Positions 3,152 through 23,460 of a stretch of DNA of 64,000 nt are shown here, one piece after another. Each line of letters starts with the position of its first letter. Position 1 is the stretch's first letter. Source of the DNA: Candidatus Marinacidobacterales bacterium (lineage in GTDB: Bacteria > Acidobacteriota > Vicinamibacteria > Marinacidobacterales > SMYC01); the NCBI GenBank assembly GCA_965237955.1, contig OZ250169.1, forward strand, positions 6,432,001-6,496,000, given 5' to 3'. The position numbers and the translations under genes are program-made. The notes below the pieces were generated by a model that was given only the letters and a program-made list of their open reading frames with translations, did not search any database and had not been told where the DNA came from.

Positions 3152-3721
3152 CTAGCGCAGCGTCTCCAAATTATGACTTAACGTCTCAAGTCCGCGTCTC
3201 AACAATCCTGCGACGCTGGGTTTGGTGCGCTCCATAAACTTGGCCATCTCCGCCAGCGACCACTCCGCAAGATACCGCAGTTCGACGGCCATTCGTTGAT
3301 CTTCAGGCAGGGCGTTCAGGGCTTCGGCGAGAAGCAACTGCCTCTCGTGCCTGGCCAGCTGCTGGCTCGGTGACGTCTGTGCCTGCACCGGCAGCCTAAG
3401 AATTCGTTCCGCGGACTCATCGATCGTTTCCCGATAAGCCTCTTCCAACGCAGCGTCGCGTTTCTTCCTAAAGAAGCGACGCTGTTCGTCAGCAAGTCTG
3501 TTCGCCAGAATCCGTCGCAGCCACGCGGCGAAGTCTTCGGCAGTCTTGCCTCTAAACTGCCCCCGCGCGACGTGAGCCTTTAGCAAAACATCCTGGACCA
3601 AATCCGAAGCATCAACCTTGTTGCGGACCGGCCCGGCCATCGCCAGCTGAACCCGGGCCAGCCCAATCAAATACGGCCGGTACCGCTCCGGACGAAAATC
3701 GGACACGACTTCGCTCGACAT
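3152..3721 (-). CDS. ECF sigma-70 factor, planctomycete-type, kinase-associated
   Basis: RYRPYL..DASDLVQD..AWLRRIL region 2 and LPEDQR..LRY..SLAEMA region 4; ends 10 bp before the kinase start; ATG at 3721 chosen. Confidence 0.9.
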   Translation of the reverse strand: MSSEVVSDFRPERYRPYLIGLARVQLAMAGPVRNKVDASDLVQDVLLKAHVARGQFRGKTAEDFAAWLRRILANRLADEQRRFFRKKRDAALEEAYRETIDESAERILRLPVQAQTSPSQQLARHERQLLLAEALNALPEDQRMAVELRYLAEWSLAEMAKFMERTKPSVAGLLRRGLETLSHNLETLR

Positions 3722-10650: not shown

Positions 10651-11220
10651 TCAACGCTCTTCGTGTGCACAATTCACTTCAATTCACTTGCTCCGTCCGC
10701 AAGCTACTCCCCTCGCTCTTCCTGCACCCCGAATGCCATCTTGCTTCACAAAAAGCCGAGGGGAAGGCCGTCACCCGAACACCCTTGGCCCGCCCCGCTT
10801 GCTCCATGCGTATTCCAGCCATCGTGAACGCCGAATCCAGAGCAAGCTGAACAGCGAATCCGGTGAAGCCGAACGCTCATCGAAGCGATGAAGTGTTGGG
10901 TGACCTCCTTCCCACTGATTGAAAACGTGAACCTATCTTACCTGCGTGTTGTGTAGCAAGGGGCGGCAGGTCGGTGCCGGAGGGAGCGGGCGTAAGGAAA
11001 GACGCGAAGCGACCTTCCCGCTCCCGTAGGCAGCGACCTGCCGCGGCCGAACCCCGGGCGATGTGGGGCTGGTTTCGGGGGGTTGCTGGGGTATGGCCTG
11101 GCTCGAGAAGACGCTTCCTGAGGCATTCTCGCGCGTCGTTTTGGCGCCGCATCGTCTGGTACCCCGGGTTTGGCGGTTTCACCCGTTTTTATCGCATCGA
11201 CGCTGTGGTCCCTCGCTCGC

Positions 11221-11974
11221 TCATGCATCGGCGTTGTCAAATGCCTTTGGCGCAGCCTTGGTCTTTCTCAGAGAAGCTCCTTTGAGAGTGATGCGGTGCG
11301 CGCTGTGGAGAATGCGATCGCAGATAGCGTCTGCCTGGTTTGGGTCGCCAATCGCTTCGTGCCACTGCTTGAGCGGAATCTGGGTCGCGATGAGTGTGGA
11401 GCCACGCTCGGCGCGGTCTTCGATGACCTCCATTAGATCCCGTCTCTCCGATTCTTTCAGCGGGTGAAGCAGCTTGGCGAGTTTCGTCAAAAGCCGGACT
11501 TACTGGCTATCGATGATTGGCGTAGGAACCATCACCACGAGCGACCGCGAGCTCGTGGAGCAAGCGCGGTGCTCGCACGTAGCATCCGGTGAAGCCGCGA
11601 CGACAGGCCCGCTCCACGAAGGCGCAAGCCAAGAACGATTTGCCAATCCCCGTCGGGCCGGTGATGAGCAGGTTATGGCGCTCACCGACAAAGCGGCAGT
11701 TGCCCAGGCTCAAGATCTGTTCGCGGTTTAAGCCTCGAGGCGCTTGGAAGTTCACGTTCTCCAAACATGCCGGATAGCGGAGCTTTGCCGCTCGCAGTCG
11801 TCGAGAAAGCTTACGCTGTTCGCGGGCGGTCCACTCGGCATCGACCAGGAGTCCCACACGTTCCTCGAAGCTCAGCTCCTTGTATTCGCTCGAGCTCAAC
11901 TGGGTTTCGAACGCGGACACCAAGCCGAACAACTTCATGGCGTTCATCTTTTCTATCGTTTCGGGTGTCAGCAT
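11221..11974 (-). pseudogene. istB: IstB ATPase with rearranged Walker B, split
   Basis: Walker A GPTGIGKS present; LDLLAIDDW-coding segment inverted and relocated (11496-11521). Confidence 0.9.
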
Positions 11975-13524
11975 CGGGACTCTCCTCCTTCGTAGTGATC
12001 CGCGCCTCGGATGTTCTCGTGCTCCTCTCGCGGTTTCGCTTCGGCGTCCGATTCGAGCACCACACGATCCAGACCAGCCGAGAGAATGTTTTTCACCGTG
12101 CGATAGCTGTAAGAGCTCAAAGCTTCCGCTCGTGCGCAAGCGGCCTCGAGACGCTCACTGCCCCAGCGGCTGCCTAGTCGCATGACTCCCAGGCAAGAGC
12201 GAAATCCCTGCTCCGGGTGAGGCCGACTCTCTAGAATCCCCGCAACCAGCCTTCCCGTGGCGCGACCTGACTGCTCCGCCCAGTGGAGCAGCCGCGACGG
12301 CGTCCACTCCAGGTGCTCCCGATGCGAACGTGGCATATGCTCCGGGTTCGTGGAGTAGTGCCCCTTTCCTTTCTTGCGGGGATGCGACGCGACGCGCTTT
12401 CCCTTGAACAGGACCTCCACCACCGAGGCCGTCACCCGTGCCTCGACTTTCTCGTGAATGAGCTGATAGGGAACGCTGTACAAGTTGTTCTCCACCTCCA
12501 CGTGGTAGTCGATGTTCACTCTGCACCGCTTCCACGTCGATAACTCGTAGCTCTCCTGCGGTAGCGGTTTCAGTACGGGCCGGTCTAGCCTTTCGTACAA
12601 CTCCCGCCGACTCACACCGAGCTTCTGCATCGGACGCGCATTCAGGACCTCTAACTTCTCCCAGATGGCTTCGTTCAGTTCCGCCAGGCTGAAGAACGTG
12701 CGATGACGAAGCACCGCCAGGATCCAGCGCTGCGCCACCTGCACTGCCGACTCCACCTTCGCTTTGTCTTTCGGCTTGAACACCCGAGCCGGGACCACAA
12801 CCGCACCGTAATGCGTCGCCAGCTCTTCGTACGTCCGGTTGATCCCTGGCTCGTAACGGTCCACCAAATCCACGCCGCTCTTCAAGTTGTCCGGAACCCA
12901 GATCTCCGTACTGCCACCGAAGTAATCCGACATCCCCTTATGGGCCTTCGCCCACGATTCCAGCGACTGGTTCAGTGTCGCTTCGACGTAGGTGTAACTG
13001 CTCGCGCCCAACGTCCCGACGAACAGCTCCATTTCGACGAGCTCTCCCGTTTTCGGATCGACGATGTGAGGCTTCTTCCCCGAAAAATCGACGAATGTCT
13101 TCTCGCCTGCTCGATGCCGTTGACGCATCGTCGGGTTCAGCTTCTTCTTCCACTGACCGTACAGCTCGCAATAACGGCTGTAGCCGTACGCTCCCGGCTT
13201 ATTCTCCGCGTACTCCACCCACAGCTGCAGCAACGTCAGCTCTCGGTGACGCCTCAGCTCCTCGTGGATGTGGGCATAGTCCAGACCCGGCCGTGCGCCA
13301 GACGAGCCCGGCGGCGGAAACAGCCCTGCCTCCAGCTCCCCGTCGCTCAGCTCCTCCGGGAGCGGCCAGCTCAGACCACCCTTCTTCGCCTTGGCCAGGT
13401 ACTCACTCACCGTTCCAACCGCCACGCGAAGTGCCTTTGCGATCATGCGGTGAGTAAAACCCAGCTCGTACTTTAACCTTAGAACCTCTCGTATTTTTCT
13501 CATCGATAACCTCTTAGCTGCCAT
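11968..13524 (-). CDS. istA: IS21 transposase IstA
   Basis: TFVDFSG, VPDNLKSGV, PKDKAKVE; 518 aa, same protein as copy 2. Confidence 0.96.
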   Translation of the reverse strand: MAAKRLSMRKIREVLRLKYELGFTHRMIAKALRVAVGTVSEYLAKAKKGGLSWPLPEELSDGELEAGLFPPPGSSGARPGLDYAHIHEELRRHRELTLLQLWVEYAENKPGAYGYSRYCELYGQWKKKLNPTMRQRHRAGEKTFVDFSGKKPHIVDPKTGELVEMELFVGTLGASSYTYVEATLNQSLESWAKAHKGMSDYFGGSTEIWVPDNLKSGVDLVDRYEPGINRTYEELATHYGAVVVPARVFKPKDKAKVESAVQVAQRWILAVLRHRTFFSLAELNEAIWEKLEVLNARPMQKLGVSRRELYERLDRPVLKPLPQESYELSTWKRCRVNIDYHVEVENNLYSVPYQLIHEKVEARVTASVVEVLFKGKRVASHPRKKGKGHYSTNPEHMPRSHREHLEWTPSRLLHWAEQSGRATGRLVAGILESRPHPEQGFRSCLGVMRLGSRWGSERLEAACARAEALSSYSYRTVKNILSAGLDRVVLESDAEAKPREEHENIRGADHYEGGESRC

Positions 13525-13779
13525 TTCCTAGATCGTCCTCCTTCCGGGTACGACCTAGAGTTGCCTTGAAACGTGCTATCGATGAGCGTTCGCGATGCCG
13601 GAACCGGCGTTCACCTTCCCCGGAATCCGTGTTCACGATGCTTTGGAATGGATGTTCACCTTCGGCTGGAATCTGCGTTCACGATGCCCCGGAATACGCA
13701 ACTCCACGCGGCATGAAATTTCCTATCATTCGACCGGCGTAGCATATGATTGCAATTCGAGCCGGAGCTGAGAGCAAGA

Positions 13780-14599: not shown

Positions 14600-15600
14600 C
14601 CCTTGTCCCTCCTCCCACGGGGTTCTATGAGTCTCCTGCTCGCGGCCCTGAGATCTTAGCTGAGTTGCAGCGAACTTCGCCGGCTAGATGGTGGATAGGG
14701 TTGAGCCAACGGACTAGCGGCGACCCGATCTCTTCGCCGAACTCGCCATGTCCTGCATGAGCTGAAGGTAATCTTGGCGACACGTACCGCCCAGAGTTCT
14801 CCTGGCCTGCAGCAGTCGGGTCTCCCGGGAGTTGCCGGGCCTATCCTCTGTCGCTCGTCTGGAAGGAAGAGACGACAAACCCAGGCGCTCCCGCCCGACT
14901 GGCTGCGAGCTGTTACCCCAGTGTTACCCCAACGGGCAGGAACCGCCCGGCGAACCCGTCCACGTTGACTCCCACCCTGCCGGGCATAACCTCCTGGGCG
15001 ACCCGGACCATCCGCTCAAGATACTTATCGTCAGTAGTTTGCGGGTCAAATCGGGCCATCGCCGCCGGTAGTTTGGTGGCCCTCGTTCGGCTCCCATCTG
15101 GGGTCCCATCGCCGCGGATGAAGTGATCGATGACGACGCCGTCGGCTACCTGGGCGATCCGCTCGAAGAACCCACGGGGCTCGGAAATCGGAAGAAGCGG
15201 GGACACCGTGATGAGCACGCGGAGCTCAGAAGCCTGCAGGGCGGCCGCGGCCCTCAAACCTTTTCTCCACCGAGCTCGCCGGTGGTGGCAAGCCAGGCAG
15301 GCGATCCCGATCGCTTTCGATGGAAATGTGAAACCGAAGCTCGCACCGCCGAGCCAACTGTAGGTAGAGGTCGCTGTAGGCGTTAACCAGGTGGGTGTGC
15401 GTTTGGACAATGAGGACGTCCGGCGGCGACTCACTCATTGCCTCCAGAAGGCGCCCGGTGATCCCGAAAGTTTTCTCCTGGGGCACGAAGGGATCGGTGG
15501 AGCTCGAGAGGAAGATACTGAAACCGCCACCCCTCTGTGCCAACCTCCTTGAGACACTTCGCCCCTTGAAATTAGTGTAGAGGGCGGAGGAGGATCATGA

Positions 15601-16068
15601 ATGACTACGTTGATTGAGAGAATGACCCCGGCGGGATCGGAAGGAGCCCGTAGGGCGACTGCAGATCGCGCCGGCCGCGATGCGGCAGGGGTCCCGGATC
15701 CCGAAGTGAGTGAGCAAGCGAAGCGTCGACGCTTTACCGCAGAGTACAAGCTGCGGATAGTGCGCGAGGCCGATGCTTGCAAGGGTGACGGGGATGTTGC
15801 GGCTCTTCTGCGTCGAGAGGGACTGTACTCGTCGCATCTTTCGAGTTGGCGTCGCCAACGTGACAAGATTGCCAAGGCGGGGTTGACATCGAGGAAGCGA
15901 GGACGGAAGGCGAAGGCAGAGGATCCACGGGTCAAGGAGCTCGAGCGCGAGAACGCGCGATTGAAGCATCGCCTGGCTCGGGTGGAGACGATGCTAGAGA
16001 TCCAAAAAAAAACCTCCGAACTTCTGGGGATCCCCCTGAATCCACCAGACAGCGACGAGAACGATTGA
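15601..16068 (+). CDS. IS3-family OrfA
   Basis: RRRFTAEYKLRIV..LLRREGLYSS.L..WR; A-rich slippery run near 16004. Confidence 0.9.
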   Translation: MTTLIERMTPAGSEGARRATADRAGRDAAGVPDPEVSEQAKRRRFTAEYKLRIVREADACKGDGDVAALLRREGLYSSHLSSWRRQRDKIAKAGLTSRKRGRKAKAEDPRVKELERENARLKHRLARVETMLEIQKKTSELLGIPLNPPDSDEND

Positions 16069-16272
16069 TGGTGGCGGCCGAGGAGCTGGCGGGACGAATT
16101 GGACAGACGGCGGAAGCCTGCGAGGCCCTTGGAATAGCTCGCTCCACGTTGTATCGCAGGCGCCAGACGGTGACGTCCAATGCGAAACGCCGGGTAGTGC
16201 ATCAGTTTGATTATTTTAGACCTTGATTTCTGGCCCGCACTCTGGCAGCGTTTGCCACCTGGAGGTGAAAGC

Positions 16273-16509
16273 ATGCCACGAGGACCGCAGAAACAGTGGA
16301 GACCCGCCGGGACCGCCGAGTGTGCCGTCCACGTCATGAGGATCGCGACAGGCGAGCTCGACGAAACGTTTGAGCCGCCCAGCGGGGATGCTGACCCGGA
16401 CGCCAGCGAGCGTGCATCGGTGGCAGCCAAGGCCCGCGCCGCGAGCCTGACGCAGGAGAGGCGCTCCGAGATCGCCAGAAACGCCGCCCGCGCTCGCTGG
16501 AAAGAGTGA
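16273..16509 (+). CDS. Small basic helical protein, putative nucleic-acid binding IS passenger
   Basis: GGAGG RBS; MPRGP..AVHVMRIATGE..ARAASLTQERRSEIARNAARARW. Confidence 0.75.
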   Translation: MPRGPQKQWRPAGTAECAVHVMRIATGELDETFEPPSGDADPDASERASVAAKARAASLTQERRSEIARNAARARWKE

Positions 16510-16564
16510 GCCCTTGCGCCAGTGAGCCGTCGCGAGTTAGTATCCAGGAGGGGGTACTCCATGT

Positions 16565-16831
16565 CTACTTCCGAGACTGCTGTTTCAGAAGACGCTCAAT
16601 CCGACTCAGAGCTGCAAGGACAGGATCTGATTGACGAAGCTCTGGTGGAAGTGCGAAATCTGATAAAATATCTCCTGCAAAACGCAGGTACTGCTTCCGA
16701 TCAAAATCGAAGCGATGCGTCCTAGACTCTTCTCTCTCGTTCTCGAGCCTTTGCTCAACAACGATTACGAACTGCTTTGTGTTGTCCGGTCTGTCAACTA
16801 GTGAAGCTTTCTCTACGGTCCATCCTTGCAT
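16565..16831 (-). CDS. Hypothetical cargo protein (88 aa)
   Basis: AGAGGA RBS and protein-like composition. Confidence 0.55.
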   Translation of the reverse strand: MQGWTVEKASLVDRPDNTKQFVIVVEQRLENEREESRTHRFDFDRKQYLRFAGDILSDFALPPELRQSDPVLAALSRIERLLKQQSRK

Positions 16832-16937
16832 GATCCATCCTCTTTTTCTAAGCGAACTTCTTCCTTTTCCTTCTTATCGACGGCCCAAGTGTGGCTACAG
16901 TTTGAGCGCTTCAAAACTGTTCTTGTTGCCGATGGTT

Positions 16938-17240
16938 TCAGCCAAACGTGCGCGACAAATAGATCAAAATGACGGTGGCCCAAGACAACGCTGTTCCTAT
17001 CCATGCCTCCTTGACTTGACGAGCCTTATAACGCTTTACGTAGGTCCGTTCCAGGAGCGCAAGATCAGTGGTGCCAACGCCTTCTTCCGATAGCGACTCC
17101 AACATTGAGTCTGACATCTTGGGAGTTCTGAGATAGACAGCAGGAATCGCGATCGGCCAAACAATCCACGCAAACAATCCCCACGGCCTCGTCCATTCTC
17201 CATCGGCTGCTTTCCTGATCTTCAACAAATTTGCTGTCAT
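16938..17240 (-). CDS. Small membrane protein with two hydrophobic segments
   Basis: AAAGG RBS; WGLFAWIVWPIAIPAVYL and WIGTALSWATVILIYL. Confidence 0.55.
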   Translation of the reverse strand: MTANLLKIRKAADGEWTRPWGLFAWIVWPIAIPAVYLRTPKMSDSMLESLSEEGVGTTDLALLERTYVKRYKARQVKEAWIGTALSWATVILIYLSRTFG

Positions 17241-17408
17241 CGGCGACTACCTTTCTCCGAAGGATGCCCGATGGCCTCTATTGGTCGCCGGGCCAGTCGC
17301 CAAACAAACCGCAGGTTGCTTGCGGGATCCCGCCTATTCCCACCCCTTGGAGGAGGTCTTGTATTCAGCGAGTGCCCCGACGGCAGGTCACCCACGGTTT
17401 GTTTGGCT
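17241..17408 (-). ncRNA. Candidate structured RNA or leader
   Basis: 13-bp perfect closing stem 17299-17311 / 17395-17407, extended by G-U pairs on the minus strand; second stem 17241-17247 / 17284-17290. Confidence 0.45.
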
Positions 17409-17414
17409 GGCGGG

Positions 17415-17444
17415 AGATTACATTAACTTGCGCGCGCGTGTCCA
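17415..17444 (-). promoter_or_regulatory. Putative sigma70 promoter for the structured RNA
   Basis: TGGACA-N18-TAATCT placing +1 at the base of the stem. Confidence 0.45.
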
Positions 17445-17532
17445 GACAATTTCGTGCTACACTCCAACAACATTTGCGCTAGCAAGTCTCAGGCCGAATC
17501 AGCGACCCATGGTTTCAAGAAAGGGTAGAAAA

Positions 17533-17697
17533 ATGGCAAGAAAATCGCCGTGGCATTCAGCCGACAGTGATGTATATCACGTTTGTAGCAATTGCACGGA
17601 AGGAGACAATATCCAGCCAGAAAACGAGATTTCTGGAAAGGGCGGTAAACGCCTTTGCTTTCGTTGTCAGGAATTAATCGACAGCAACGGCTGCTAG
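17533..17697 (+). CDS. Small Cys/His-rich protein (54 aa), putative zinc binder
   Basis: MARKSPWHS..VYHVCSNCTEGDNI..GKGG..LCFRC; AAGGG RBS. Confidence 0.65.
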   Translation: MARKSPWHSADSDVYHVCSNCTEGDNIQPENEISGKGGKRLCFRCQELIDSNGC

Positions 17698-17997
17698 AAC
17701 TGGCACGCCATCAGTATGCGGGCCCTTTTTGTGGAAGGTCATTTCCCATTCAGGCCCCGTAAGCTCTCCGTCTACTACGGACCAGGTGCGCCGGAGTTTG
17801 GAGATCGGGAGCGGACCAAATGTCATAGCCACCCATACAGCTTTGTATCCTTCTTCATGCCCCCCAGAAAACCGAATCATCGGGACAGGAGAGGCGTGGC
17901 CTTCGCCGCCCTCGCAGGATTCGAATGTCTCGATCCCATGTTGTTGAAGCGTCTTGACAAATTGGGCAATCCCGGGATCGAGTATGCCGTCTCTCAT
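17674..17997 (-). CDS. Hypothetical cargo protein
   Basis: LDPGI..FVKTL..HGIETFESCEGGEGH..P.IRF; S-C-E-G motif recalls TYW3-like folds (weak). Confidence 0.65.
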   Translation of the reverse strand: MRDGILDPGIAQFVKTLQQHGIETFESCEGGEGHASPVPMIRFSGGHEEGYKAVWVAMTFGPLPISKLRRTWSVVDGELTGPEWEMTFHKKGPHTDGVPVLAAVAVD

Positions 17998-18151
17998 ACT
18001 GAGGATACTAGACCGCACAGTCCCCAATAGGAAATGCTACCTTACTAAGTCTTTGTATCGCAAGCGCTTCCAGTTTAATCCCTCTAACCATGGCGGCCAC
18101 ATGGTCGATTGTGTCGGCCGGTTCGGCCTTCGGATTAGCGCGATAAAAGAG

Positions 18152-18180
18152 TTGACATTCATGCTTGCGGAATATATACT
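18152..18180 (+). promoter_or_regulatory. Near-consensus sigma70 promoter of the IS1-like transposase
   Basis: TTGACA-N17-TATACT; ATG follows at 18188. Confidence 0.75.
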
Positions 18181-18187
18181 TTTGATT

Positions 18188-19066
18188 ATGAATAAGATGA
18201 CGGTTCAGAAGCGAGCCACCATCCTCAAAATGTTGATGCACGGATCGTCCATACGGTCGATCGGCGAGATTACGGGCTCGTCCGCCAACACGATATCGAA
18301 ACTGTTGATCGAGGCCGGAAAGGCTTGCGCAGCCTATCACGACGCGACGGTCCGGAACGTGAGCTCGAGACGCGTTCAGGTCGATGAGATCTGGTCGTTC
18401 ACCTACGCGAAAGCGAAAAACGTAGCACGGGCGAAGGCCGCACCCGAGGGCGCGGGCGACACCTGGACGTGGACGGCGCTTGACGCTGACTCCAAGCTGA
18501 TCGTCTCCTGGCTCGTAGGTGGGCGCGATGCCGGTTACGCCGCCGAGTTCATGCAAGACCTGGCCGGTCGCCTGGCCAACCGCGTACAGCTCACCAGCGA
18601 CGGCCACCGGGTGTACCTGAACGCTGTCGAGGATGCGTTCGGTTCGGATATCGATTACGGAATGTTGATCAAAAACTACGGAGACGCGCCGGAAGGTCAG
18701 AGGCGGTACAGCCCGGCCGTCTGCACCGGAGCGACACGGATGCGCGTGAGCGGCGACCCCGACGAGGCCCACATCAGCACCAGCTACGTCGAGCGCCAGA
18801 ACCTCACGATGCGGATGAGCATGCGCCGGTACACGCGGCTGACGAACGCCTTCTCGAAGAAGCTGGCGAATCACGAGCATAACGTCGCGCTCTACACCGT
18901 GTGGTACAACTTCTGCCGTATCCACCGGAGCCTTCGTGTGACGCCAGCGATGGAAGCCGGACTGGCCGACACTCCCTACGATGCTGAGTGGATCGTCGGG
19001 CTGGTGGACGAGGCAGCACCGAAGCCGCGTAAGCCTGGCCCGAAGGGGCCGCGCAGAAGGAAGTAA
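18188..19066 (+). CDS. IS1-family DDE transposase
   Basis: HTH, VQVDEIWSF, QLTSDG, STSYVERQNLTMR..RLTNAFSKK, TPAMEAG. Confidence 0.92.
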   Translation: MNKMTVQKRATILKMLMHGSSIRSIGEITGSSANTISKLLIEAGKACAAYHDATVRNVSSRRVQVDEIWSFTYAKAKNVARAKAAPEGAGDTWTWTALDADSKLIVSWLVGGRDAGYAAEFMQDLAGRLANRVQLTSDGHRVYLNAVEDAFGSDIDYGMLIKNYGDAPEGQRRYSPAVCTGATRMRVSGDPDEAHISTSYVERQNLTMRMSMRRYTRLTNAFSKKLANHEHNVALYTVWYNFCRIHRSLRVTPAMEAGLADTPYDAEWIVGLVDEAAPKPRKPGPKGPRRRK

Positions 19067-19104
19067 TCAAACTGATGCACTACCAAACGCCGCCCTCGGT
19101 TGCG

Positions 19105-19260
19105 TATTCCGGGGCATCGTGAACGCAGATTCCAGCCGAAGGTGAACATCCATTCCAAAGCATCGTGAACACGGATTCCGGGGATCGTGAACATCGATTC
19201 CGGGGAAGGTGAACACGGATTCCAGGCAACGTGAACGCCGGTTCCGGCATCGCGAACGCT
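19105..19260 (+). repeat. About seven tandem ~22-bp IS21 left-end repeats
   Basis: Consensus gATTCCnnnnnnnnGTGAAC; same array at 31841-31996, two units fewer at about 13585-13696. Confidence 0.85.
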
Positions 19261-19320
19261 CATCGATAGCACGTTTCAAGGCAACTCTAGGTCGTACCCG
19301 GAAGGAGGACGATCTAGGAA

Positions 19321-20877
19321 ATGGCAGCTAAGAGGTTATCGATGAGAAAAATACGAGAGGTTCTAAGGTTAAAGTACGAGCTGGGTTTTACTCACCGCAT
19401 GATCGCAAAGGCACTTCGCGTGGCGGTTGGAACGGTGAGTGAGTACCTGGCCAAGGCGAAGAAGGGTGGTCTGAGCTGGCCGCTCCCGGAGGAGCTGAGC
19501 GACGGGGAGCTGGAGGCAGGGCTGTTTCCGCCGCCGGGCTCGTCTGGCGCACGGCCGGGTCTGGACTATGCCCACATCCACGAGGAGCTGAGGCGTCACC
19601 GAGAGCTGACGTTGCTGCAGCTGTGGGTGGAGTACGCGGAGAATAAGCCGGGAGCGTACGGCTACAGCCGTTATTGCGAGCTGTACGGTCAGTGGAAGAA
19701 GAAGCTGAACCCGACGATGCGTCAACGGCATCGAGCAGGCGAGAAGACATTCGTCGATTTTTCGGGGAAGAAGCCTCACATCGTCGATCCGAAAACGGGA
19801 GAGCTCGTCGAAATGGAGCTGTTCGTCGGGACGTTGGGCGCGAGCAGTTACACCTACGTCGAAGCGACACTGAACCAGTCGCTGGAATCGTGGGCGAAGG
19901 CCCATAAGGGGATGTCGGATTACTTCGGTGGCAGTACGGAGATCTGGGTTCCGGACAACTTGAAGAGCGGCGTGGATTTGGTGGACCGTTACGAGCCAGG
20001 GATCAACCGGACGTACGAAGAGCTGGCGACGCATTACGGTGCGGTTGTGGTCCCGGCTCGGGTGTTCAAGCCGAAAGACAAAGCGAAGGTGGAGTCGGCA
20101 GTGCAGGTGGCGCAGCGCTGGATCCTGGCGGTGCTTCGTCATCGCACGTTCTTCAGCCTGGCGGAACTGAACGAAGCCATCTGGGAGAAGTTAGAGGTCC
20201 TGAATGCGCGTCCGATGCAGAAGCTCGGTGTGAGTCGGCGGGAGTTGTACGAAAGGCTAGACCGGCCCGTACTGAAACCGCTACCGCAGGAGAGCTACGA
20301 GTTATCGACGTGGAAGCGGTGCAGAGTGAACATCGACTACCACGTGGAGGTGGAGAACAACTTGTACAGCGTTCCCTATCAGCTCATTCACGAGAAAGTC
20401 GAGGCACGGGTGACGGCCTCGGTGGTGGAGGTCCTGTTCAAGGGAAAGCGCGTCGCGTCGCATCCCCGCAAGAAAGGAAAGGGGCACTACTCCACGAACC
20501 CGGAGCATATGCCACGTTCGCATCGGGAGCACCTGGAGTGGACGCCGTCGCGGCTGCTCCACTGGGCGGAGCAGTCAGGTCGCGCCACGGGAAGGCTGGT
20601 TGCGGGGATTCTAGAGAGTCGGCCTCACCCGGAGCAGGGATTTCGCTCTTGCCTGGGAGTCATGCGACTAGGCAGCCGCTGGGGCAGTGAGCGTCTCGAG
20701 GCCGCTTGCGCACGAGCGGAAGCTTTGAGCTCTTACAGCTATCGCACGGTGAAAAACATTCTCTCGGCTGGTCTGGATCGTGTGGTGCTCGAATCGGACG
20801 CCGAAGCGAAACCGCGAGAGGAGCACGAGAACATCCGAGGCGCGGATCACTACGAAGGAGGAGAGTCCCGATGCTGA
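19321..20877 (+). CDS. istA: IS21 transposase IstA
   Basis: DDE motifs as in copy 1. Confidence 0.96.
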   Translation: MAAKRLSMRKIREVLRLKYELGFTHRMIAKALRVAVGTVSEYLAKAKKGGLSWPLPEELSDGELEAGLFPPPGSSGARPGLDYAHIHEELRRHRELTLLQLWVEYAENKPGAYGYSRYCELYGQWKKKLNPTMRQRHRAGEKTFVDFSGKKPHIVDPKTGELVEMELFVGTLGASSYTYVEATLNQSLESWAKAHKGMSDYFGGSTEIWVPDNLKSGVDLVDRYEPGINRTYEELATHYGAVVVPARVFKPKDKAKVESAVQVAQRWILAVLRHRTFFSLAELNEAIWEKLEVLNARPMQKLGVSRRELYERLDRPVLKPLPQESYELSTWKRCRVNIDYHVEVENNLYSVPYQLIHEKVEARVTASVVEVLFKGKRVASHPRKKGKGHYSTNPEHMPRSHREHLEWTPSRLLHWAEQSGRATGRLVAGILESRPHPEQGFRSCLGVMRLGSRWGSERLEAACARAEALSSYSYRTVKNILSAGLDRVVLESDAEAKPREEHENIRGADHYEGGESRC

Positions 20878-21629
20878 CACCCGAAACGATAGAAAAGATG
20901 AACGCCATGAAGTTGTTCGGCTTGGTGTCCGCGTTCGAAACCCAGTTGAGCTCGAGCGAATACAAGGAGCTGAGCTTCGAGGAACGTGTGGGACTCCTGG
21001 TCGATGCCGAGTGGACCGCCCGCGAACAGCGTAAGCTTTCTCGACGACTGCGAGCGGCAAAGCTCCGCTATCCGGCATGTTTGGAGAACGTGAACTTCCA
21101 AGCGCCTCGAGGCTTAAACCGCGAACAGATCTTGAGCCTGGGCAACTGCCGCTTTGTCGGTGAGCGCCATAACCTGCTCATCACCGGCCCGACGGGGATT
21201 GGCAAATCGTTCTTGGCTTGCGCCTTCGTGGAGCGGGCCTGTCGTCGCGGCTTCACCGGATGCTACGTGCGAGCACCGCGCTTGCTCCACGAGCTCGCGG
21301 TCGCTCGTGGTGATGGTTCCTACGCCCGGCTTTTGACGAAACTCGCCAAGCTGGACTTACTGGCTATCGATGATTGGCTGCTTCACCCGCTGAAAGAATC
21401 GGAGAGACGGGATCTAATGGAGGTCATCGAAGACCGCGCCGAGCGTGGCTCCACACTCATCGCGACCCAGATTCCGCTCAAGCAGTGGCACGAAGCGATT
21501 GGCGACCCAAACCAGGCAGACGCTATCTGCGATCGCATTCTCCACAGCGCGCACCGCATCACTCTCAAAGGAGCTTCTCTGAGAAAGACCAAGGCTGCGC
21601 CAAAGGCATTTGACAACGCCGATGCATGA
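20871..21629 (+). CDS. istB: IS21 helper ATPase IstB (intact)
   Basis: Walker A GPTGIGKS, Walker B LLAIDDW, ADAICDRI; GGAGGAG RBS. Confidence 0.95.
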   Translation: MLTPETIEKMNAMKLFGLVSAFETQLSSSEYKELSFEERVGLLVDAEWTAREQRKLSRRLRAAKLRYPACLENVNFQAPRGLNREQILSLGNCRFVGERHNLLITGPTGIGKSFLACAFVERACRRGFTGCYVRAPRLLHELAVARGDGSYARLLTKLAKLDLLAIDDWLLHPLKESERRDLMEVIEDRAERGSTLIATQIPLKQWHEAIGDPNQADAICDRILHSAHRITLKGASLRKTKAAPKAFDNADA

Positions 21630-23460
21630 GCGAGCGAGGGACCACAGCGTCGATGCGATAAAAACGGGTGAAACCGCCAAACCCGGGGTACCAGACGATG
21701 CGGCGCCAAAACGACGCGCGAGAATGCCTCAGGAAGCGTCTTCTCGAGCCAGGCCATACCCCAGCAACCCCCCGAAACCAGCCCCACATCGCCCGGGGTT
21801 CGGCCGCGGCAGGTCGCTGCCTACGGGAGCGGGAAGGTCGCTTCGCGTCTTTCCTTACGCCCGCTCCCTCCGGCACCGACCTGCCGCCCCTTGCTACACA
21901 ACACGCAGGTAAGATAGGTTCACGTTTTCAATCAGTGGGAAGGAGGTCACCCAACACTTCATCGCTTCGATGAGCGTTCGGCTTCACCGGATTCGCTGTT
22001 CAGCTTGCTCTGGATTCGGCGTTCACGATGGCTGGAATACGCAGTCGGTCGCACCGAGCCCTCGATGTGACCGAACGTGAGCTGGTTCTCGGTGCCTTGC
22101 ACTCCGAGCGGTTCGTCGACAAGGCGCCCGCTCAGGTGTGGGCCACGCTCCTGGACGAGGGAATCTACTACTGCTCGATCCGCACGATGTATCGGATTCT
22201 GGCGGAGAACGGAGAGGTCCGAGAGCGCCGGAACCAGCTGCGACATCCGAATTATCAAAAGCCGGAGCTGCTGGCCGAAGCGCCGAACCAGGTTTGGTCG
22301 TGGGATATCACCAAGCTGCGTGGCCCCGTCAAGTGGACCTACTACTACCTCTACGTGATTCTGGACATCTTCTCCCGTTACGTGACCGGGTGGATGTTGG
22401 CTCGACGAGAAAGCGCTGAGCTCGCTCGTCGTCTCATCAGCGAGAGCTGCCGCAAACAGAACATCGAACCAGACCAGCTCACCATCCACGCCGACCGTGG
22501 CAGCTCGATGCGAAGCAAGTCCGTAGCTATGCTCCTGGCTGACCTCGGCGTTACCAAGACCCACTCCAGACCTTACGTCTCGAACGATAACCCCTACTCC
22601 GAGTCCCAGTTCAAGACTCTGAAGTATTGCCCTCAGTTTCCGAGCCGTTTTGGTTCCATCGAAGACGGCCGGCTGTTCTGCGGCGGCTTCCTCGACTACT
22701 ACAATCACGAACGCCGGCACTCGGGAATCGGCCTCATGACACCGGCCGCCGTTCACGATGGTCTCGCGGAACAGCTCACCACTGCCCGGCGCCAAATCCT
22801 CCTCGAAGCTCATCGGGCTCATCCCGAACGCTTCGTTCGCGGAATGCCACAGCCCCCCGTTTTGCCTCCTCAGGCCTGGATCAACCCGCCGCCGGAGAAA
22901 ACGACGCGCCAGGAGGCCGCCGGAGCCACTTTCTCGAGGTGGTCCACACCTGGGGCCCCCGGATTCAGGCCAACGCGACCAGATCTCGCCGCACGCAGAC
23001 GGTGACCGCCCCGGGCCCACGAGTCTTACTGCATTGATTGAGGCTCACTAAATGCAGTCCGCGGGTGTCTCAAAGTTGTTGACACGTTCCGCACGCGCCC
23101 GCCGCGCCCACCGCCGCTCCGTCTGATACTGACTCCGATAGGCCTCGGGCGCGTTCGTCCGGACCTCGAGGAAGCTCCCCCACTCCGCGCCGCGCGTCAA
23201 CCAGTGGTTATGCTGCACATAGCAGCCCACACCGCAGAGCGAGTTTCCGAAAGTGCACCCTCGGTAGGGCTGCATCGAGTGGGACGTGACGGTCTTCAGA
23301 TATCCAGAGGTGCGGGTAAGAATGCTGCGCACTCTGGACTTTGTGATGGTGACGCGCATGCTGAATATGTCCTTTGAGAAATTGTCGCTTGCCCGATCGA
23401 CGAGTGCAATCCCTAGTCGGCGCTCAACGACCGAGCCTGGCTTCCAGCCACGGGAGTATC

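Follow-up and report, generated by a model that had tools for sequence, protein, structure and literature searches.

An IS1-type element of Candidatus Marinacidobacterales as a probable two-gene chassis with exchangeable cargo, here a leader RNA unit and a phage-type gene pair

When an insertion sequence carries several small genes that no protein library can name, are these genes one module with one task, or lodgers on a vehicle that can carry others just as well? The question is raised by a stretch of 64,000 nucleotides from Candidatus Marinacidobacterales bacterium (assembly GCA_965237955.1, contig OZ250169.1, positions 6,432,001 to 6,496,000), which is called the window hereafter and whose numbering is used for all coordinates unless another contig or locus is named. 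Within the window, an IS1-type element of 2,892 bp occupies positions 16193..19084 and contains a transposase gene, five small open reading frames (ORFs) and a candidate noncoding RNA. A preliminary description of this DNA took the five ORFs together as a candidate for one undescribed mobile module. Comparison with relatives does not support this but splits them into a core gene of the element family, a membrane-protein gene behind a leader RNA, two genes that form a tail-to-tail pair, and one orphan, because the first is found in nearly all delimited relatives, the leader unit occurs alone in another element, and the pair resides mostly in phages. This copy is an ordinary member of a large, little-described IS1-type family, with two partly undescribed modules. 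We regard it as probable that the family is built as a fixed chassis, namely two ends, a transposase and a small basic core gene, with exchangeable cargo, which in this copy consists of the leader-membrane unit and the phage-type pair.

Did the whole element arrive at once? The terminal inverted repeats, at 16193..16216 on the plus strand and 19061..19084 on the minus strand, correspond without a mismatch for 20 nt and, when taken to 24 nt, are complementary at 23 positions (96%), the right one overlapping the stop codon of the transposase gene. On both flanks lies the 8-bp duplication AAACGCCG, the left copy (16185..16192) in the 5′ part of an IS3-type orfB and the right one at 19085..19092. 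It is to be noted that the same left flank is present at eight places of the genome: four are uninterrupted with a single AAACGCCG, three diverge just after it, and one is this insertion. Since the four empty sites, each in a copy of the host IS3-type element that has stayed whole, carry AAACGCCG only once, the duplication is a true target duplication, and from both together it follows that the whole 2.9 kb was inserted as one unit. Thus, what the preliminary description had said of perfect 20-bp repeats, an 8-bp duplication, an intact transposase and cargo moved as a unit is borne out. All five small ORFs and the transposase are open on the strands described; those of the small ORFs run +, -, -, +, -, and so do not strictly alternate as had been stated. 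The GC content is about 0.48-0.56 in the cargo (16600-18200) and about 0.60-0.65 in the transposase gene and the flanks. The element is a single copy in the genome, which also has related transposases and one further complete relative (genome positions 1476813-1479446) with its own duplication. DNA contigs of four sequencing runs, which may include the source sample, span much of the cargo at high identity; no RNA run with it was listed, which says nothing for or against expression. The insertion point is the start of orfB in the IS3-type element, and an IS21-type element begins a few bases past the right duplication. The surroundings are a nested pile-up (15560-23005), in which the IS3-type element was hit by the IS1-type element and, a few bases on, by the IS21-type one. 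The genome holds about 37 near-identical copies of IS21 type and 14 of IS3 type, and the window has one more IS21-type copy, in inverted orientation, at about 11000-13700.

What kind of element is it? The transposase (18188..19066, plus strand) is an IS1-type DDE enzyme, a single ORF of 292 amino acids with an N-terminal helix-turn-helix (HTH) and no zinc ribbon, preceded by a near-consensus promoter (TTGACA, 17 nt, TATACT; 18152..18180, plus strand) that ends 7 nt before the ATG. It matches Pfam PF03400 (DDE_Tnp_IS1) with 28 bits against a cut-off of 24.1, its best NCBIfam match, NF033558 (IS1), stays at 60.8 bits below the cut-off of 100, and the residues D66, D138 and E202 are present. Canonical IS1 has two ORFs joined by a frameshift and an N-terminal zinc ribbon. 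In contrast, this element has neither frameshift nor InsA/InsB layout, and its one ORF has a single Cys in the first 60 residues. Short inverted repeats starting with GGT and a target duplication of 8-9 bp are typical of the IS1 family, and both are found here and in 60 of 80 relatives. These 80 loci were retained for analysis from a scan of GTDB genomes with the transposase, which gave at least 561 relatives; the closest among the matches listed come from Candidatus Marinacidobacterales. In 60 loci matching ends and 7-8 of 8 positions of the duplication delimit elements of 1.7-4.5 kb, and the other 20 are incomplete or not delimited. Passenger-bearing IS1 relatives are catalogued in ISfinder, and there is a single-ORF ISMhu11 subgroup of IS1, a term that was not found in the literature searched. 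Transporter insertion sequences (tIS) with passenger genes are a described kind, according to the available part of one source (PMC9330008). The present element, with an IS1-type transposase above the Pfam cut-off, GGT ends, passengers inside one pair of ends, a duplication around the whole and empty sites beside it, belongs among them, as the preliminary description had proposed. Unlike the known IS1 and tIS elements, this family has a second conserved small gene, nearly each member has a cargo set of its own, rich in toxin-antitoxin and defence genes, and short end-to-end remnants with intact duplications are left behind.

The second conserved gene encodes the basic protein of 78 amino acids (16273..16509, plus strand; basic motif at the C-terminus). 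A profile of this protein has matches inside 57 of the 60 delimited elements, on the transposase strand and mostly 70-380 nt from the left end, and none outside the ends in those 60 loci; therefore, this ORF is a core gene and not cargo. The protein has 433 homologues, and comparison with locus L002 (pN/pS, the proportions of nonsynonymous and synonymous differences, 0.04/0.36) indicates purifying selection. There is no Pfam match, a partial match to PHROG 2384, and an automatic label 'RNA-binding protein' in the Atlas, and the basic motif is shared with the N-terminus of some P63C-domain proteins. Judging from the basic motif and the automatic name, the core protein is likely a nucleic-acid-binding accessory or regulator. 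Apparently via the same motif, some P63C-domain cargo proteins cluster with the core gene (L043:3409-4572, L038:3135-4175 and L012:2768-3781).

The rest of the interior is exchanged freely. Heuristic ORF calling in the 60 delimited elements gave 202 cargo ORFs in 103 clusters, 89 of them singletons, and 51 distinct cargo sets. The proposed comparison of elements with similar ends thus finds a shared core gene and mostly differing cargo. Library scans of cargo representatives (111 with Pfam, 68 with PADLOC) place toxin-antitoxin or defence-type genes, by cluster membership, in 34 of the 60 elements. Among them are HTH-ImmA with or without HigB (PD-Lambda-2B-like), RosmerTA, Fic/SoFic, GmrSD/HEC-06, STAND ATPase, Panacea, HicB, NYN and DUF3800. 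To be held against a defence-rich reading, 17 of the 34 belong to a single HTH-ImmA cluster and are non-independent, and the count of 34 thus overstates independence. The operon behind this cluster, HTH-ImmA (PD-Lambda-2B-like) with an unnamed protein of about 160 amino acids and HigB called in 6/17, recurs at L011, L015, L020, L036, L055, L064 and 11 more loci, and is a candidate defence system variant. Even where the transposases are 80-93% identical, what a relative has in common with the present element is confined to the left end, to the RNA, or to the RNA together with the two-transmembrane (two-TM) gene. L002 shares the left end and the RNA. In L004 the shared stretch runs from the -35 box of the leader promoter down to the two-TM stop codon, and it is found on the far side of the transposase gene in opposite orientation. 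As for the cargo of this copy, its five small proteins have no family above cut-off in Pfam, NCBIfam, PHROGs and PADLOC, and 0/5 matched PADLOC 2.0 at E 0.1. The earlier judgement that the cargo could not be assigned therefore stands, and the suggested search for defence genes came back empty for this copy. An addiction or defence role of its cargo may still be considered.

Is such cargo perhaps mostly neutral baggage, in which small units taken over from phages and other mobile DNA have been left to drift and the orphan and two-TM ORFs are weak or dead genes? The element is present only once in the genome, the orphan of 88 amino acids found no homologue, the two-TM gene is weakly constrained, the SCEG gene of the pair has no clear ribosome-binding site here, and several copies of the leader elsewhere precede truncated genes. 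Against this, all frames are open, both proteins of the pair retain their invariant residues, and a promoter-to-stop unit has moved intact to another element (93% identity). We therefore regard neutral baggage as unlikely, and return to the probable chassis with exchangeable cargo by looking at the two cargo modules one by one.

The candidate noncoding RNA is a predicted leader. The region 17250-17430 folds better than shuffled sequences on both strands (z -2.7 and -3.2). Reading the minus strand, a predicted sigma-70 promoter (TGGACA, 18 nt, TAATCT; 17415..17444), absent from a stricter promoter scan, is followed by a 5′ strand (17383..17412) which begins at the predicted transcription start and contains about 20 nt complementary to 17299-17323. 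Then come a cloverleaf domain (17279..17381), in which the closing stem is followed by ACCA and an internal loop carries the conserved AAUACAA/GAAUA, and the ribosome-binding region of the two-TM gene (17241..17258), whose spacer before the ATG is complementary to the single-stranded 3′ region of the RNA (duplex of -15.4 kcal/mol, paired when the 5′ strand is blocked). The sole Rfam match is sRNA-Xcc1 (RF02221) on the minus strand, at 21.5 bits and E 1.8 over model positions 1-87, the cut-off being 53; the closing stem, the internal-loop hairpin with AAUACAA/GAAUA and the second hairpin of sRNA-Xcc1 are all recognizable. A whole-genome search with RF02221 gave no match, and C4 (RF01695) and IsrK (RF01394) are not among the Rfam matches up to E 5 in 16100-19200. 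Relatives of sRNA-Xcc1 form a graded series from 26 to 66 bits, and a pattern scan found seven viral loci, six of them with the family at 32-66 bits and one above cut-off. A model of our own, R1, was built from 12 sequences, among them that of the window, which scores 93 bits as a training sequence. With R1, copies were detected in 7 of the 19 family genomes searched, in 24 of the 151 searched in the class and in 5 of the 80 transposase loci. The fold exceeds chance, and the candidate RNA is a distant relative of sRNA-Xcc1 and not new in kind.

In the usual layout, a sigma-70-like promoter and the 5′ strand precede an Xcc1 domain that terminates with ACCA or a variant of it, after which come a short hairpin, the ribosome site and the ORF. 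Of 49 RNA loci, 20 have the core gene or a transposase of IS1 or IS1595 type in the examined flanks, and therefore the leader unit is not confined to this IS1-type family. In the available parts of the sources, sRNA-Xcc1 of Xcc was mapped as an 88-nt RNA (PMC2996969), and it is reported to precede symE in integron cassettes of Xanthomonas (bioRxiv 2025.06.18.660453) and to lie upstream of an ORF6N gene in APSE phages (bioRxiv 2020.03.17.996009). The present leader resembles it in the closing stem, both hairpins and the location on mobile elements. Unlike the Rfam model, it has a promoter of its own and a complementary 5′ strand about 20-30 nt long; unlike sRNA-Xcc1 as reported, such leaders precede exported or membrane proteins; and the literature, so far as it was available, treats sRNA-Xcc1 as a trans-acting small RNA controlled by HrpG/HrpX, which differs from the leader reading taken here.

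Several observations on the leader stand by themselves. A longer subtype with a conserved insert in the upper hairpin exists at L123, L127, L128 and L153-L158. The promoter spacer (17421-17438, minus strand) forms a near-perfect palindrome that L002, L005 and L115 retain and that is possibly an operator, and the same promoter heads a different leader at contig C1 5937101-5937151 of the genome, next to a fragment of IS1595. In metagenomes a 23-nt tail pattern matched 10 loci, 9 of them by chance in coding DNA and 1 real, and in viral contigs it had no match. A retron msr match in L005 (E 3.2) is taken as chance. A pseudoknot of HDV-like or H-type was rejected by geometric reasoning: a linker of 4 nt is too short to bridge a stem of 20 bp, and the two stems are therefore alternatives.

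How could these alternative stems be used? Statistics were calculated on 29 copies, de-replicated at 85% from 42. The 3′ region of the RNA pairs with its own 5′ strand at a mean of -35.0 kcal/mol and with those of others at -19.6 (permutation p 5e-5), and the own 5′ strand is the best partner in 24/29 copies. Pairing of the 3′ region with the own ribosome site is also slightly stronger than with other sites (-8.8 against -7.3 kcal/mol; n=25, p 0.001), while two control regions showed no difference between own and other (p 0.27 and 0.37). Thus, one transcript holds a strong upstream and a weak downstream site, the latter still above controls, in the manner of C4 and CI. When the 5′ strand was blocked in silico, the computed openness of the ribosome site went down in 14/25 copies and up in 2 (p 0.005), and in the window leader the 3′ region then pairs over the start codon. 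The next ORF has a signal-peptide-like or membrane N-terminus by a hydropathy rule in 23 of 28 cases, compared with 332 of 1003 long ORFs of the genome.

The known small RNAs P4 CI (seqA/seqC), P1/P7 C4 and Gifsy-1 IsrK come to mind, each of which lies inside the leader of its own target transcript, can take either of two folds and has complementary sites both upstream and downstream, as far as the available parts of two sources tell (PMC4825925, PMC8201110). In particular, CI RNA is processed from a longer leader transcript and pairs with sites on both sides, and IsrK switches its own long transcript between two folds (available part of PMC4825925). The present leader differs from these RNAs by having no Rfam match to C4 or IsrK and by preceding a membrane protein instead of an antirepressor or a killing gene. 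Both C4 and CI are processed by RNase P. We lean to the view, by analogy, that the leader RNA works like the antisense RNAs CI of phage P4 and C4 of P1. In a new transcript, the 5′ strand would first pair with the 3′ region of the RNA and leave the ribosome site more open. The alternative fold, a cloverleaf ending in ACCA, would be excised (probably by RNase P) to give a stable RNA some 100 nt long. This RNA would pair in trans with the 5′ strand of further transcripts, whose own 3′ region would then be free either to mask the start codon or to adopt the cloverleaf. The downstream gene would be shut off once the released antisense RNA accumulates. The outcome would be a burst of membrane protein upon arrival in a naive cell and then silence, as for P4 CI and P1 C4. 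Because of the computed folding, repression is favoured as the direction of control, whereas activation or a purely cis switch is possible. As an observation outside the 29-copy statistics, the phage copies of sRNA-Xcc1 at L081, L085 and L087 show, by eye, complementary sites upstream and at the ribosome site of antirepressor-like genes, the classic C4 layout.

Not all results go along with this mechanism. The ribosome-site signal is weak, the own site being the best in only 4/25 copies, and 9/25 copies show no change of openness when the 5′ strand is blocked. The fold of the window leader with the 5′ strand paired reaches -77.3 kcal/mol and the one with the closing stem of the cloverleaf forced only -65.9, about 11 less stable, and the minimum-energy fold of the 100-nt piece by itself lacked the Rfam-type arms. 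Covariation in the cloverleaf is modest with 12 sequences (3-82 of 500 shuffles are as high), and IsrK, according to the available part of PMC4825925, is a similar switch that can activate rather than repress. Would the leader then act only in cis, as a switch governed by a ligand, a protein or kinetics or as a stabilizing 5′ structure of genes for exported proteins, with no processed RNA acting in trans? The AAUACAA/GAAUA loop is invariant and could be the binding site of a ligand or protein, copies lie close to the promoter before unrelated exported proteins, and 29 of the 49 loci have neither an IS1 or IS1595 transposase nor the core gene in the examined flanks. On the other hand, the 5′ strand and the 3′ region differ between copies and yet remain matched to each other, as allele-specific antisense pairing would explain better than a shared ligand; copies repeatedly have ACCA, or something close to it, right behind the closing stem; and the namesake sRNA-Xcc1 accumulates as a discrete 88-nt species (available part of PMC2996969). 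A leader acting in cis only is, we suppose, rather unlikely, and an antisense RNA of the CI and C4 kind is the reading we keep.

The gene behind the leader (16938..17240, minus strand) encodes a protein of 100 amino acids with two moderately hydrophobic segments. L004 has a copy 88% identical, the homology running through the whole promoter-to-stop unit, and a single close cluster, with 3 members, was found at 91%. With pN/pS of 0.052/0.100 (about 0.5), constraint is weak. As a guess, the protein might exclude incoming elements or be toxic at the membrane. A symE-type type I toxin-antitoxin reading is unsupported, as the library scan gave no SymE match. Cys/His mini-proteins distantly like the one described below follow the leader-controlled gene of related elements at L002:3981-4154 and in L059 near 3400-3600. 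On the same strand, 106 nt behind the two-TM gene, lies the orphan ORF of 88 amino acids (16565..16831) with a purine-rich ribosome-binding site. No homologue was found in 18 other genomes of the family, the 80 transposase loci and the library scans, large protein searches not being covered; from its sequence, it may be a real co-transcribed gene or not a gene.

The second module is the tail-to-tail pair. On the plus strand, 17533..17697 encodes a mini-protein of 54 amino acids with a predicted Ada N-terminal-like zinc fold and His/Cys3 ligands (H16, C21, C42 and C45, all conserved; 351 representatives), and on the minus strand, 17674..18027 encodes the SCEG protein, a small alpha/beta fold. 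The latter has 622 homologues with invariant D17, S37, C38, G40, H44, R80 and W94. It probably starts at the ATG at 17997, later than the TTG at 18027, neither having a clear ribosome-binding site. A profile of SCEG retrieved 80 viral loci, or 71 after de-replication. The mini-protein is present in 47/80 and stands tail-to-tail in 46/80 (40/71 after de-replication); in 45 of these 46 the frames are open and the ends within about 65 nt. Only 3 of the 80 have an IS1-type transposase, and the neighbours vary (58 scanned), including integrases, antirepressors, methylases and IS1595. The pair is additionally found in L006, L061 and L135. Thus, it is a conserved mobile two-gene module which travels in varied mobile contexts. 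No name for it was found in the libraries or literature searched, and the leader RNA does not accompany it in phages (0 matches in 87 loci).

What does the pair do? One reading is that SCEG is an enzyme-like effector kept in check by the zinc mini-protein as antidote, whose ribosome site is the stronger of the two (median -8.0 against -4.9, p 0.026). In favour of it also count the convergent order amid unrelated neighbours and the toxin-antitoxin or defence-type genes in 34 of the 60 delimited elements. The proposal is tentative, since several points speak against it. In 33 of the 80 viral loci SCEG has no zinc partner in the DNA examined (a few are incomplete) and in 1 the arrangement is another; so many partner-less loci argue against a lethal toxin. 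Library scans gave no toxin family match for either protein, and tail-to-tail order is unusual for a protein antitoxin.

The main rival is a small unit for modification or repair of nucleic acids, and not for addiction, in which TYW3-like methyl transfer or a cysteine alkyl acceptor would be combined with an Ada-like DNA-binding finger. The structure model of SCEG (predicted local distance difference test, pLDDT, 86) has a best fold Z of 7.2 with no distinctive match, and its profile found no solved relative, BFVD giving only an uncharacterised phage protein. The D...SCxG motif and weak fold likeness recall TYW3/Taw3: the fold search matched four TYW3-like structures (Z 4.6-5.0, identity 11-20%), and in the Atlas a TYW3 cluster scores 0.82. 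These Z values are, however, within background and below those of EpsM/PilO, SCEG is half the length of TYW3, and there is no match at the sequence level, with 0/118 members of the family matching Pfam TYW3 at E 1. For the mini-protein (model pLDDT 89.8), only 2 of 48,161 chains reach Z 2, and both are N-terminal Ada domains, as in E. coli Ada (best Z 4.0, root-mean-square deviation 2.5, 49 aligned). Unlike Ada it stands alone, and its first zinc ligand is His, where Ada has the methyl-accepting Cys. The pair often lies in early or antirepressor regions of phages, which would suit such a unit. Balancing these, a modification or repair unit seems doubtful to us, and effector with antidote remains our tentative choice.

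The element family also leaves traces after its interior is lost. Remnants of 31-41 bp, in which two element ends are joined at their inner sides, occur at six places of this genome (923384, 3869587, 6537149, 6628767, 7181155 and 7926530 of contig C1), and in 13 of 201 genomes of the class, with 0 control matches (loci L094-L098, L256 and L264, and the set L251-L265). Of 15 retrieved, 13 have 7-8 of 8 positions of the target duplication. Because the junctions vary, hairpin-assisted deletion of the interior fits better than a site-specific cut, and nearly precise excision is a comparable process.

What may all of this mean together? At its boldest, and only with low confidence for the three parts jointly, the element would be an integron-like IS1-type vehicle without integrase, a two-gene chassis that swaps promoter-to-stop units; the relatives of sRNA-Xcc1 would be widespread self-targeting antisense switches, released by RNase P, giving allele-specific pulses of envelope proteins triggered by arrival; and SCEG with its Ada-like zinc partner would make up a new family of convergent toxin-antitoxin or anti-phage modules, including a small enzyme that is new as well. 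A link of sRNA-Xcc1 to a C4/CI-type mechanism was not found in the literature searched, although primary papers or supplements may state parts of it. Even apart from the bold version, the pair is a small and easily cloned phage module of two genes without assigned function, and the family is a compact source of candidate defence genes, in which RosmerTA, PD-Lambda-2-like, SoFic and GmrSD-type genes lie beside many unnamed ORFs. For sRNA-Xcc1, modelled in Rfam but without a mechanism in the literature searched, the leader offers one that can be tested. If the leader is a C4/CI-type switch, its orthogonal cognate pairs could be used as regulators, and an immunity device of phages would have been extended to the timing of surface-protein genes.

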